Shown here piece after piece: positions 3,113 to 8,270 of a stretch of 64,000 nucleotides of DNA. The translations under genes and the position numbers were made by a program. The DNA lies in IMG/VR virus record IMGVR_UViG_3300034523_000174, positions 1 to 64,000 of that record; one strand, 5' to 3'. Positions within the stretch are counted from its first letter, which is position 1. Every line of letters begins with the position of its first letter. Source of the DNA: a virus. Under the pieces are notes generated by a model, which saw only the letters and a program-made list of their open reading frames with translations, was not told the origin of the DNA and did no database searches.

Positions 3113-3387
3113 GCGAGCCACTGCCGGCGGTGGTGGTGAACGCCCATGAAAGGTACGTTAGCCATATCATGTTTTGTGCAGATTGTTATGCACCGAAAAA
3201 GCGCCATTGTCTTACAGGGTTGAGCCTTCGAATCGAGTACGACGCTCAGTTTTTGATGACAATTAGCGATCTTCGCTGGCGCCGAACTCTGTTATTGCGT
3301 GAAGGCGATCAGAACCCGGCAAACGCAGACGGGCTCAAGGCTCGCGTGATTGAGCTGTACAACGAAGGTTTAGAAAAAGCGCAATAG
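3109..3387 (+). CDS. hypothetical protein with H..CxxC..C motif
   Basis: TTGA overlap with the upstream stop. Confidence 0.6.
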   Translation: MSEPLPAVVVNAHERYVSHIMFCADCYAPKKRHCLTGLSLRIEYDAQFLMTISDLRWRRTLLLREGDQNPANADGLKARVIELYNEGLEKAQ

Positions 3388-3435
3388 GTTGTCAATTTCG
3401 CCACGTCCACAGCGAAATGCTTGCGCCTTTTTGGC

Positions 3436-3464
3436 TTGCCAAATGTATAGGGATACTTTCTAAT
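3436..3464 (+). promoter_or_regulatory. sigma70-like promoter with operator ATGTATAGGGAT (3443-3454) in the spacer
   Basis: TTGCCA-N17-TCTAAT; the 12-mer recurs exactly at 12048, 62385 (-) and 63004. Confidence 0.6.
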
Positions 3465-3499
3465 CGCCGCGTTGAGACGTGCCGGGGAGGGTGCTTTAG

Positions 3500-4252
3500 A
3501 TGGTCGGGGATAAAACAACCGCTGCGAATGCGACAGAGGCAGAAGGGGCGTCGGGCGATATCCGAAGCGCTGAGCTTTCGTTGTTTAGCGAGTCGGAAGA
3601 CTTGGGGGTTGGCGCTGGCTCAAATGAGCGCCGACGTGCCGAGGAAACCCGCCTAATGGGCATCGTCGGACGGAAGCTGCGCCGGGCACGCAAAGCGGCC
3701 GGATTGAGTGAGAGCGCTGCCGGTTTGGCGCTGGCTCAGGAAGGCGTGACGATGATCAGCCTTTACGAGAACGGTCACCGACTGCCGAGCTTGGCAAACC
3801 TGCGCCTGCTGGCTCAATTGTACGGCGTGACGACTGATTACCTCCTTGATATGCACGACGACATTCTGGCCGAGCCAGAAGAGGGCAATCAGGCTGTACT
3901 CAGGGGCATTATCAGTGCCTCCCTAATGGGCCAGTTCGGCCAGTTCGTAGATGGGATTTCACGCCGCAACGCCATCATGATCGAGGCTCTAAGCCTGGAT
4001 CGCGCTCTGCTGTCCAACCTGGCCGGTGTCGCCACGGATCTGGTCAGCGCTCTAAACGTCGTCAAAACCCACGCCCCCGAGTTCGAAGAGATTCGCGGTG
4101 GTGCAAAGCTCGTCCGTTTGGTGGGCGAACTGCATGGGAGTATGTCCGAACAGATACGCCGCCGAGCGCGAGAGGAAGCAATGGCCGACTACGAGCCGTT
4201 CTGTCCCGCGCCGGAGCAGATTGCAAAGCAGGTGCAACAGCTTTTGTTTTGA
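3500..4252 (+). CDS. XRE-family HTH regulator with C-terminal extension (candidate late activator)
   Basis: LRRARKAAGLS...ISLYENG.R.PSL..L..LAQLYGVTTDYLL; lies upstream of the small terminase gene. Confidence 0.8.
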   Translation: MVGDKTTAANATEAEGASGDIRSAELSLFSESEDLGVGAGSNERRRAEETRLMGIVGRKLRRARKAAGLSESAAGLALAQEGVTMISLYENGHRLPSLANLRLLAQLYGVTTDYLLDMHDDILAEPEEGNQAVLRGIISASLMGQFGQFVDGISRRNAIMIEALSLDRALLSNLAGVATDLVSALNVVKTHAPEFEEIRGGAKLVRLVGELHGSMSEQIRRRAREEAMADYEPFCPAPEQIAKQVQQLLF

Positions 4253-4299
4253 TTTGTGCTGCTGGAGAGGAAGGCGCGTATAGCCGTCGTGGCGCCTTT

Positions 4300-4803
4300 T
4301 GGAGTGAACCAGTTAGTCAACGGCGGTCGCAGCACCCCGCGCTCCCTGCCACCTCCGGCAGGTCGCGGGTTTTTACAGGGTTACGCATAACCGGAGCGCT
4401 TTGGATTAGAGCGCTGCGGTATGCAGTAGGCCGAAAGGCGGCAAGCATGGCCAGGGCGTTCCTCCTGGTTGTAGTGGCGCCAGTAATGCGGGTTGACCAT
4501 GCGCCTAAGCGCGTTACCTGCTGCATTTCAAATTAGCGCCCTGTGCGCGGATAGCTTGGCCTCCTTAAGGGGCTGATTCAAAGCGTGATGCGGTCGCTCG
4601 TTGTGGTGGTCTGGTGGGATGTCTCTACCAGGCTAAGGCGCTCTTAGACAGTGCGCTGCAACACCCCAGCATGGATAACCGACAGGAGAAAGGTTTACTG
4701 CCTTTGCGGCGCCGGTCAGTAGCGTTCCGTTGACTGATAGTGGTGGGGGTCAGTACCAGGACCAACGCCCACAAGAGTAGCCCGCCCTGCGGGCTATTTT
4801 TTT
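4300..4803 (+). ncRNA. candidate large structured non-coding RNA (family unknown)
   Basis: No credible ORF; about 10 nested helices with + strand G.U pairs; closing helix 4312-4323/4727-4738; GAAA tetraloop; ends in an intrinsic terminator. Confidence 0.55.
4778..4803 (+). terminator. intrinsic terminator
   Basis: TAGCCCGC-CCT-GCGGGCTA followed by a T run. Confidence 0.8.
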
Positions 4804-4873
4804 ACCGTGAGGCGCAAGAAGTTGGCCGCGTTGCCACGGTTGATAGCGAACTTATTACGCATGAGGTGTTGGG

Positions 4874-5947
4874 ATGCCGCGCAAGCCAGATACTGAAAAA
4901 CCAGCCGTGTCGGGGGATGATTTATCCCCGTCCTCGGCTAACGCGCGCGCTCGTAAACCTGCAAAACCGCGTGCGGTTAATGTTAACAAGGCCGTGCCGA
5001 GCAAAAAACCGGCCAAAAAGCCTGTAAAAAAAGCCGCCAAAGCCCCTGCAAAACCGGTCACGCCGAAGAAGGCGAACCGGCACGGTGGCTGTGGAACGAC
5101 AAAGATAGAGAACCCAGTGAAGCTAACGCTGAAAGAGCGTAAAGCCATGGAAATGGCGGCTTTCCAGGGGCTTGATGCCAGGCAGGCGAAGTTCGTCGAC
5201 CTGTGGTTGGTGACGTATGACCAGCGCCAGTCTTACCGTGACGCCGGGTTCAAGTGCGCCAACGATAACGCAGCCTCAGCAGCGGCCAGTCGTCTGTTAA
5301 GTAAGGTTAAGTCACACCCATATACGCTGGCTCGCCAAGTCGAGCTGTTTGCCCGCACGGCAGATGTTCAAAACCAGCTCATAGCGACCTATCACGCGGC
5401 GTCGTTTGCCGATCCGCGCGAGCTGGTTGAGTACGTGCGCCGGTGTTGCCGCTACTGCTACGGCATCGACCATAAGTTCCAGCTGCGCCCCAGTGAAATG
5501 GAACGGCGCCGGGCGCAGTACGAAATGGATAAAGCCGCCGCCGAGGAAGAGAACAAGACCATTGGCGAGTTCGATGAGCTTGGCGGTGTGGGCTACGACG
5601 GCAAGAAGCCTCCCCACTCCGATTGCCCTGAGTGCGACGGTGAAGGCGAAGGCCGCGCGCTATTCAAAGACACTAGCAATCTGTCTCCTGCTGCCCTGGC
5701 GCTCTATGAGGGTGTGAAGGAGGGCAAGGACGGTACCGAGCTTAAAGTGGCCAGCCAGAAAGGCTATCGCGACGGTTTGGCAAGGTTGTTCAACATGAAC
5801 GTGGAGCCGGCTGTAGTGGTGAATCAGGGGGTCACGGAAGAGAGGCTTGAGGAAATCCTGGCCATCGCTGAGGCGAACACTCAGAAAAATCGCGAGGCTA
5901 TGGCCGCACGAATGGAAGAGCTGGCCAAGATAGGAATCGTCAATTGA
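4874..5947 (+). CDS. terminase small subunit (PacA-like) with Zn finger and K/P/A-rich N-terminus
   Basis: Q..FV..W...Y..AG......ASRLL HTH; DPRELVEY.R.CCRYC...CPECDGEG as seen in phage TerS. Confidence 0.8.
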   Translation: MPRKPDTEKPAVSGDDLSPSSANARARKPAKPRAVNVNKAVPSKKPAKKPVKKAAKAPAKPVTPKKANRHGGCGTTKIENPVKLTLKERKAMEMAAFQGLDARQAKFVDLWLVTYDQRQSYRDAGFKCANDNAASAAASRLLSKVKSHPYTLARQVELFARTADVQNQLIATYHAASFADPRELVEYVRRCCRYCYGIDHKFQLRPSEMERRRAQYEMDKAAAEEENKTIGEFDELGGVGYDGKKPPHSDCPECDGEGEGRALFKDTSNLSPAALALYEGVKEGKDGTELKVASQKGYRDGLARLFNMNVEPAVVVNQGVTEERLEEILAIAEANTQKNREAMAARMEELAKIGIVN

Positions 5948-6225
5948 AACCGGCCGGGCCAACCGCTTCACAGGTTATGCAAGCACGCCGCACTACTGGC
6001 CTGAGTCAGCGCGCAAGCGCGGCGCTGATTCATGTCAGCCGGAGAGCCTGGCAGACCTACGAAGACGGCACAGTGACGATGAAACTCGGCTTGTGGGAGC
6101 TGTACCAGTTCAAGACCGGACAAATTTGGGGAAGTCTGCCGCCCTTGAAGGGTGGGAAACAGGCTACATCGCGCCAGGGTAGGCCAGAAAACTTAACGCC
6201 ATTCAAGGCAAAGTCACAGGAGTAG
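5944..6225 (+). CDS. small XRE HTH protein
   Basis: ARRTTGLSQRASAALIHVSRRAWQTYEDG. Confidence 0.7.
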   Translation: MKPAGPTASQVMQARRTTGLSQRASAALIHVSRRAWQTYEDGTVTMKLGLWELYQFKTGQIWGSLPPLKGGKQATSRQGRPENLTPFKAKSQE

Positions 6226-7708: not shown

Positions 7709-8270
7709 TTTTGAGTATGCCGCGAGCCAGGCCGGGATAACGGATCTGGAGCGCGACGGCGAGGATTACGCCAACGCCAACACACAAATGGCGTATGCCG
7801 TATGGCTGAGCGTGGCATTCCCCCTTGGTGAGAATGGTTCGGCCCCGTTGGCGTGGGTAAACCGTCGCGGTGGCAAGGCGGTTGGGCTTGTTCTGGCGCG
7901 ACCTACAGGGCCGGAGTCGCCTCAGTGGGCCAAGCGTGTCGCCCAAGGCTGGCAATCATCTATGCCGATGTACGCCAACGTGCCAGGGGTGAGCCATGAG
8001 GTGATGTCTGTCGTGCTTGAGCACCAGCGCCAGCGCCAGGAAGAGGGCTATTCGATACAGAGCGACCTGGAGCAATACCAAGGGGGCGAGCTGGCGCGTG
8101 CGGCGGCGTGCTACGCGATGCAGGCGGGCGGCGTGTACCCAATGCGCTACGTCAGCTTCTGGCCCTTCAAGTCGAAAATCAAATCCTGCCCACCGGCTGA
8201 ATCGCTGGCCAAGGCTGGCGCGCTGATCTTTGCCGAGCTTGAGCGTGCAAAGGCGCAAAGCCACCAATAA
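7683..8270 (+). CDS. conserved phage hypothetical protein
   Basis: C-terminal E..RQ...EGY....D..Y..GELARAAACYA...WP...L.KAGALI.AELER domain, common in phages. Confidence 0.75.
   Translation: MSIFLNRADFEYAASQAGITDLERDGEDYANANTQMAYAVWLSVAFPLGENGSAPLAWVNRRGGKAVGLVLARPTGPESPQWAKRVAQGWQSSMPMYANVPGVSHEVMSVVLEHQRQRQEEGYSIQSDLEQYQGGELARAAACYAMQAGGVYPMRYVSFWPFKSKIKSCPPAESLAKAGALIFAELERAKAQSHQ

Follow-up and report, generated by a model that had tools for sequence, protein, structure and literature searches.

ROOL and GOLLD are large, ornate RNAs that are often encoded in prophages and whose function is not known (Kretsch et al., Nature 2025, PMC12286853). By kind, they are the closest analogues of the RNA described here, which is located upstream of the small terminase gene (terS) in a group of Pseudomonas phage-plasmids and has in common with them its large size, its multi-domain and non-coding nature, its carriage by phages or prophages, and its many conserved unpaired nucleotides. 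In contrast to ROOL and GOLLD, the terS-upstream RNA is smaller (core of ~390 nt), occurs in Pseudomonas instead of Firmicutes, and has a regulator gene and terS as fixed neighbours instead of tRNAs; a sequence or structure match to either of them was not obtained with cmscan against Rfam. By position, it resembles putL/putR of phage HK022 and the pR'-6S-tR' late leader of phage lambda, which are likewise encoded between a gene for late control and the late operon, with a terminator downstream. The put RNAs, for which structure matters, consist of two stem-loops in about 70 nt and have no sequence similarity to the terS-upstream RNA, and the structure of the lambda 6S leader is not conserved, unlike that of the RNA reported here. 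Phage-plasmids and satellites also produce stable RNAs that are cut from longer regulatory transcripts, namely the immunity RNAs c4 of P1, CI of P4, and CA of N15. These are antisense-type RNAs of 70–200 nt with defined complementary targets, whereas the terS-upstream RNA has no target complementarity above chance (antisense matches in the 77.6-kb phage genome were at chance level only). In a screen of IMG/VR contigs, unnamed structured-RNA candidates were reported 5' of terminase genes (8,495 unnamed models, none characterised; Fremin & Bhatt 2023, PMC10690425), and this catalogue may contain the terS-upstream RNA as one of its unnamed models.

The window analysed here covers the initial 64 kb of an IMG/VR virus record that is 77.6 kb long and has direct terminal repeats. 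A gap of ~620 nt (4253–4873) lies between a regulator gene and terS, and all genes near the gap are on the + strand. The upstream gene (3500–4252) encodes a 250-aa XRE-type helix-turn-helix (HTH) regulator (Pfam HTH_3, E-value 4e-9; PHROG 7396 and 8) with a weak RstR-like match in NCBIfam. The first gene 3' of the RNA (+ strand, 4874–5947) was confirmed as terS via Pfam Terminase_2 and PHROG 51, as the initial annotation, made from the DNA letters, had assumed when it placed the element next to the small terminase gene. The encoded TerS carries an N-terminal extension of ~90 aa (window 4874–5150) ahead of the Terminase_2 domain, which is of low complexity, rich in Lys, Pro, and Ala, and common to the relatives.

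Positions 4300–4803 were predicted to fold on the + strand with −227 kcal/mol (z = −4.1 versus dinucleotide shuffles). In this comparison, 0 of 100 shuffles were as good, and the z-score of the minus strand was only −1.8. Across the aligned homologs, G·U accounted for 18% of paired cells in the 3' domain of the RNA and for 8% in its 5' domain (see below for both domains); the + strand was taken to be the folded strand because the opposite strand would lose these G·U pairs. The initial proposal of selection at the RNA level, drawn from G·U pairs on the + strand, is borne out by both observations. Rfam 15 (including RNase P, tmRNA, group I and II introns, ROOL, GOLLD, HEARO, Proteo-phage-1, riboswitches, and small ribozymes) was searched with cmscan, which gave no match for the whole window at gathering thresholds and only four short chance-level matches on 4150–4950 at E ≤ 10, the best being the terminator hairpin as toga_FSE (23 bits versus a threshold of 40). 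ARAGORN predicted neither tRNA nor tmRNA on 3500–5500, and the earlier statement that the element lacks the hallmarks of tRNA, tmRNA, RNase P, and group I/II introns agrees with both searches. Open reading frames (ORFs) of 25–89 aa are present in the region on both strands, and none is kept across the homologs. Substitutions among the homologs had no 3-base periodicity (273, 322, and 285 differences per frame), and the indels were mostly not multiples of three (6–17 per pairwise comparison). Conservation of the RNA core was similar to that of the flanking coding DNA (e.g., 87% versus 78–90% in the comparison with the type A relative L003), and iterons or tandem repeats were not found in the region. 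The element is a conserved non-coding RNA with an intricate fold and a length of about 400–550 nt, is read on the + strand, and is under RNA-level selection. It has no Rfam 15 counterpart and is a new family among the large structured phage RNAs; the suggestion of an undescribed large phage RNA was thereby upheld, given Rfam 15 matches no better than chance at E ≤ 10, 16 homologs with compensatory changes, and no conserved ORF.

Using terS-based and motif-based searches, 16 distinct members were identified in Pseudomonas phage-plasmid-like elements, each of which is 77–95 kb in size where the contig or record is complete. Relatives in Pseudomonas phage-plasmids had been anticipated, and homologs were indeed found on plasmid-borne phage-like elements of this genus. 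The members were assigned to four types: type A (the window, L003–L006, L018, and L015; viral or metagenome contigs), type B (L001, an 81-kb plasmid of P. atacamensis SM1; L014, which equals L020; and L019), type C (L022, i.e., pKF715C of P. putida KF715, and L039), and the “mini” type D (L023, a plasmid of P. fluorescens DR133; L025, an 82.7-kb contig of P. azerbaijanoccidentalis SWRI74; L041; and L042). The provisional membership of type D rests on nhmmer matches to the 3' domain (E-values 7e-7 and 5e-13), common motifs (a Pe-like CGACAG hairpin, GGAUAAC, and the 3' strand of helix P4), and synteny, and not on the covariance model, which misses type D even with filters off; the 5' domain is lacking in this type. 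The gene order is the same in the window and in all homologs for which flanks are available: XRE regulator gene, RNA, intrinsic terminator, conserved blocks, and terS. A homolog of the regulator gene is located directly 5' of the RNA in L001, L022, L023, and L025, and this position holds wherever the upstream flank is available.

The deposited terS start codons of three plasmids look wrong (L022, 3979–5061; L023, 2240–3361; L001, 4356). The annotated start is ~105 codons too late in pKF715C and in the DR133 plasmid and falls within the terminator of the RNA in the SM1 plasmid, and the true TerS N-termini of these plasmids (MPR..., Lys/Pro/Ala-rich) align with the terS product of the window. 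On the SM1 plasmid, a gene annotated as a Hint-domain homing endonuclease (intein-type) was additionally observed from position 7978 onward, a few kb 3' of terS.

The RNA family is rare and small. Searches of a phage collection with blastn returned no homolog, and the pattern of invariant motifs had 0 matches in 185,579 species genomes, among which one close terS relative is present. More distant terS relatives (L007–L009, L024, and L026–L037) did not have such an RNA according to nhmmer. The sole match of the 3'-domain model in 151 Pseudomonas genomes (L043, 28.8 bits) was discarded as false, as it is located within an ORF and does not have the conserved motifs, and two sequences from a metagenome scan (L016 and L017) were unrelated chance matches to the pattern with ~40% identity. 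Short contigs from two RNA-library runs (X19 and X20), which may be DNA, include the element from another relative (type-B-like or type-A-like), with flanks that differ from the window around 4476–4518 and 4788–4828; public data therefore hold further family members.

The comparative structure, which was derived from aligned sequences, predicts a two-domain molecule with a core at about 4384–4772 (~390 nt) rather than one closed unit. The architecture initially proposed was about half right: several of its helices were kept, its closing helix was rejected, and four or five of the inner helices were replaced. The closing helix had been drawn between 4312–23 and 4727–38. At least four of the aligned members, and types B to D altogether, have no counterpart of its 5' strand, and the helix forms 10–12 of 12 pairs only in the closest relatives (6–7 of 12 in L005 and L015). 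It has zero compensatory changes, and it overlaps and competes with the covarying helix P7. Two further helices, 4374–80/4539–45 and 4696–4700/4717–21, turned out to be specific to the window.

Upstream of the core, two elements are confined to type A. The first is a 5' module at 4261–4313, in which a helix (4261–65/4309–13) surrounds hairpin A (4269–77/4292–4300). The loop of this hairpin (GUAUAGCC..GUG) is conserved in type A, and six of its nine pairs are maintained through two-sided changes (RNAalifold, 6 type-A sequences). The second is hairpin C with a U5 run (4336–4374; stem at 4336–69), located between the regulator gene and the core and retained from the initial annotation. Its stem differs in sequence in each relative and always pairs, with at least 9 of 13 pairs compensatory, and a U-rich run follows in 6 of 6 type-A sequences; hairpin C looks like an intrinsic terminator or a stabiliser. 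The 18 nt after the two terminator-like hairpins (4370–4387 and 4799–4816) are 72% alike (TTTTTAC.G.G...CGCA), which may be chance or a common post-terminator signal.

The core starts with the P1 hairpin (4390–4402/4408–4420; 12 pairs, 95.7% of cells paired), in which three pairs switch from CCG/CGG to AAA/UUU in 5 of 12 sequences and which retains the hairpin first drawn at 4385–4424. The 5' domain (4422–4525) is multi-branched and closed by P2 (4422–29/4518–25). Inside it are P2a (4430–32/4437–39; GCC-GAAA-GGC), which had been recognised at the outset and whose GAAA loop is GNRA in most type A and B members read by eye, a variable hairpin (4452–56/4463–67), which corresponds to the hairpin seen at 4449–70, and P2c (4483–90/4510–17). 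P2 and P2c displaced the initially assigned helix GCGGGT/ACCTGC around ATGCGC/GCGCGT, with A-U replaced by G-C in half of the sequences. Types A and B have an almost invariant 19-nt loop in P2c (4491–4509; GGUUGACCAUGCGCCUAAG), with L001 and L015 deviating at a few positions. Compensatory pairs numbered two in P2, three in P2a, and four in P2c; the outer UGGC/GCCA pairing (4448–51/4479–82), with zero covariation and broken in L015, is uncertain. The CCUAAG motif, similar to half of the 11-nt tetraloop receptor, was rejected as such, the partner strand being missing.

The 5' domain is followed by a variable linker hairpin (4536–4548), which is GCGC/GCGC in the window and, by eye, a hairpin of different sequence in most members, and by the Pa hairpin (4559–63/4569–73; three of five pairs compensatory), which preserves the helix assigned to 4556–76. 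The tmRNA 5'-end lookalike GGGGCUGAUUC at 4569–79 is not conserved and was dismissed.

The 3' domain (4590–4712) is closed by P4 (4590–97/4706–12), for which two registers fit, L014 and L019 favouring different ones. P5 (4600–08/4662–70) encloses P5a (4609–18/4624–33), a long variable hairpin that was kept from the initial hairpin at 4609–4633 and is deleted in L001, and Pe (4637–44/4650–57; loop UAGAC). P5 displaced the earlier pairing 4600–08/4654–62: in L019, both partners are altered in three of the four outer pairs, and in L039, GG/CC is replaced by AA/UU. A GGUGGU/ACUGCC pairing from the first RNAalifold run was likewise dropped in favour of P5 and P6 (4689–93/4701–05), with P5 supported by compensatory changes in L001, L004, L019, and L039. 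The 3' domain also contains the conserved single-stranded segment GCAUGGAUAACCG (4669–81), which includes GGAUAACC. An octamer identical to lambda boxA (CGCUCUUA, 4639–46) in the 5' strand of Pe was judged to be probably coincidental, as it is window-specific within a covarying stem and the consensus of the relatives reads YCYUUAGAC. The AACACC(CC) motif was tried as an anti-Shine–Dalgarno sequence against the ribosome-binding site of terS and rejected, as the terS side is not conserved.

Downstream of the 3' domain, the P7 hairpin (4715–20/4733–38) has a conserved loop (AGCGUUCCGUUG), forms six of six pairs in all type A members and L022, and has three of six pairs compensatory. The bipartite P8 hairpin (4742–45/4766–69 and 4748–51/4760–63) is preceded directly by a conserved AGUGGU and has five of nine pairs compensatory. 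The unit ends in an intrinsic terminator (4778–4803) with the stem 4778–85/4789–96, a CCU loop, and a U7 run, ~70 nt before terS. It is the closing hairpin of the minimum-energy fold, 100% of its cells are paired, and L015 contains a compensatory change; the strong terminator noted initially at the 3' end of the unit is thus real in the form of this GC-rich hairpin with U7. It escaped a simple scan for terminators, the probable reason being an extension of its stem by A-U pairs into the U run.

Between the domains, GGUU in the P2c loop (4491–94) can pair with AACC (4677–80) in every member of types A to C. The GGUU persists in type C despite a different surrounding loop, and type D, in which the 5' domain is lacking, has AACG instead of AACC. 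Support for this pseudoknot is circumstantial, since the columns are nearly invariant and covariation cannot test it.

Covariation was assessed in two ways. For the unbiased test, 10 cores were aligned with MAFFT and a consensus was computed with RNAalifold: 95.2% of cells were paired versus 34–48% with the partners slid, and 28 pairs had changed on both sides versus 2–7 slid and 12.1 ± 2.5 shuffled (0/500). For the curated test, the structure was determined from type A alone and turned into covariance models, to which types B and C were then aligned. The 3'-domain model built only from type A recovered types B and C at E-values of 6e-7 to 3e-12; in the resulting alignment of 12 sequences, 93.0% of cells were paired and 21 of 43 pairs had changed on both sides versus 3–9 slid and 9.1 ± 1.9 shuffled (0/500), with at least two compensatory pairs in each of six helices. 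The corresponding 5'-domain model recovered type B at about 1e-23 to 1e-25 and type C at 1e-4 to 1e-6, and 93.0% of cells were again paired, with 14 of 40 pairs changed on both sides versus 1–5 slid and 7.0 ± 1.2 shuffled (0/500). In the type-A 5' module, 15 of 27 pairs had changed on both sides. Model-fitted alignments lean towards their model, and the unbiased MAFFT/RNAalifold result agrees with them; all of these counts include inherited changes, because the family consists of no more than 16 members, which fall into four closely related types.

A consensus sigma-70 promoter was not found in 3300–5100, and neither a scan nor inspection by eye revealed a convincing sigma-54 or sigma-70 promoter 5' of P1. 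P1 abuts the stop codon of the regulator gene (within about 10 nt) in L014, L019, L022, L039, and type D. From the lack of a consensus promoter and, in types B, C, and D, the proximity of P1 to the stop codon, it was inferred that the RNA is transcribed together with the regulator gene as the 3' part of its transcript. Over 3400–6000, four metatranscriptome or transcriptome runs yielded only short contigs of low depth, which were scattered equally over the RNA and the two genes that flank it and could be DNA. Between the terminator and terS, four blocks (GCGCAAGAAGTTGGCC, TGCCACG, GATAGCGAAC, and ATTACGC; + strand, 4812–4861) are conserved in types A, C, and D and partly in type B, and they include a TTGGC-N-GCCA-like dyad. 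This stretch is probably an activator-dependent late promoter or an operator, and as such a neighbour of the RNA and not a part of it; possibly, it is targeted by the HTH protein encoded upstream. No further copy of the box was found in the 77.6-kb genome, where matches were at chance level only. The arrangement recalls other phages in which genes for late activators of the RinA family are located just 5' of terS (PMC3152322).

Roles in packaging, as a decoy, or in a late switch, as suggested initially, are speculative. The reading that we prefer, in which we place about as much belief as doubt, is a stable RNA that comes from the 3' end of the regulator transcript and acts on its own. The RNA would be made as the 3' end of the early or middle transcript of the regulator gene and then perhaps processed. 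Its two domains would dock via the GGUU/AACC pseudoknot, possibly aided by the GNRA loop, and the molecule would, while development switches to the late phase, either act in trans or serve as a scaffold that binds protein. The RNA would not be a sensor for the terminator, which would mainly insulate the late (terS) operon, the latter having its own conserved, activator-type control region further 3'. The molecule is larger and has more invariant unpaired nucleotides than known leaders need, which argues for this reading. Against it stands the layout of the locus, as a same-strand RNA that immediately precedes the late operon and ends in a terminator is the classic arrangement of a cis-acting leader; moreover, hairpin C, if it were an efficient terminator, would require a promoter for the core, and none was found.

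The same layout is the basis of the main alternative, which we regard as possible and on the whole unlikely: the element would be a cis-acting leader of the late operon, in which the RNA renders the polymerase resistant to termination (as HK022 put does) or senses a factor and thereby sets read-through of the 4778–4803 terminator into terS, as a lysis-lysogeny or late switch. In 16 of 16 members, the RNA is on the same strand directly 5' of terS, with the terminator about 70 nt before the start codon, and no consensus promoter is present between the terminator and terS; the operator- or activator-like blocks conserved 3' of the terminator argue in the opposite direction. One RNA-library contig (4611–4854) crosses the terminator and would fit read-through, but it may be DNA. 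The near-invariant GCGGGUU (4488–94) could pair with the 5' strand of the terminator (UAGCCCGC). This antiterminator candidate (4488–95 with 4776–83) is the sole one, yet the terminator change in L015 is compensated internally and would break the pairing with GCGGGUU, and types C and D keep the terminator without having the GCGGGUU motif. A two-domain RNA of ~400 nt is also far larger than the known put, EAR, and typical riboswitch elements.

It is rather unlikely, in our estimate, that the RNA represents a novel class of large phage RNAs that have tertiary structure and their own biochemical role, e.g., a ribozyme, a ROOL/GOLLD-like self-assembling RNA, or an RNA subunit that together with the regulator or the terminase times or licenses packaging in phage-plasmids. 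An explanation that we consider improbable is a 3'-UTR element of the regulator gene, which would control stability or translation of the mRNA, or bind or titrate the regulator or a host RNA-binding protein such as RsmA/E. It draws on the fact that, in types B to D, the RNA is contiguous with the ORF of the regulator, on the strict linkage to the regulator gene (16 of 16 members), and on putative CsrA/RsmA-like sites, namely the near-invariant CAUGGAU (4670–76) and several GGA motifs; only two or three GGA motifs are conserved, however, and the extensive conserved architecture would be superfluous for a sponge or stabiliser. A DNA-level element (a pac or cos site, an origin, or an operator array) or a hidden small protein gene is highly improbable and already largely refuted, since the position next to terS, where packaging sites are frequent, and a 69-aa minus-strand ORF (4317–4526) that is intact in three members are set against compensatory changes, strand-specific G·U pairs, and a conserved U-tract terminator, all of which point to RNA, as well as against the absence of repeats and of codon periodicity, the frame-breaking indels, and the splitting of this ORF in L006 and its absence from types B to D.

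It is rare for a large bacterial or phage RNA to have numerous conserved helices together with invariant loops, and earlier examples proved to be ribozymes, ribonucleoprotein scaffolds, or self-assembling cages. With 16 members, the reach of the terS-upstream RNA is narrow unless its function proves to be new. Its location, between the regulatory genes and the packaging/late operon of a group of Pseudomonas phage-plasmids, is a decision point, and the cultured carriers of the RNA (KF715, SM1, DR133, and SWRI74) constitute a tractable system for the function of a large phage RNA.
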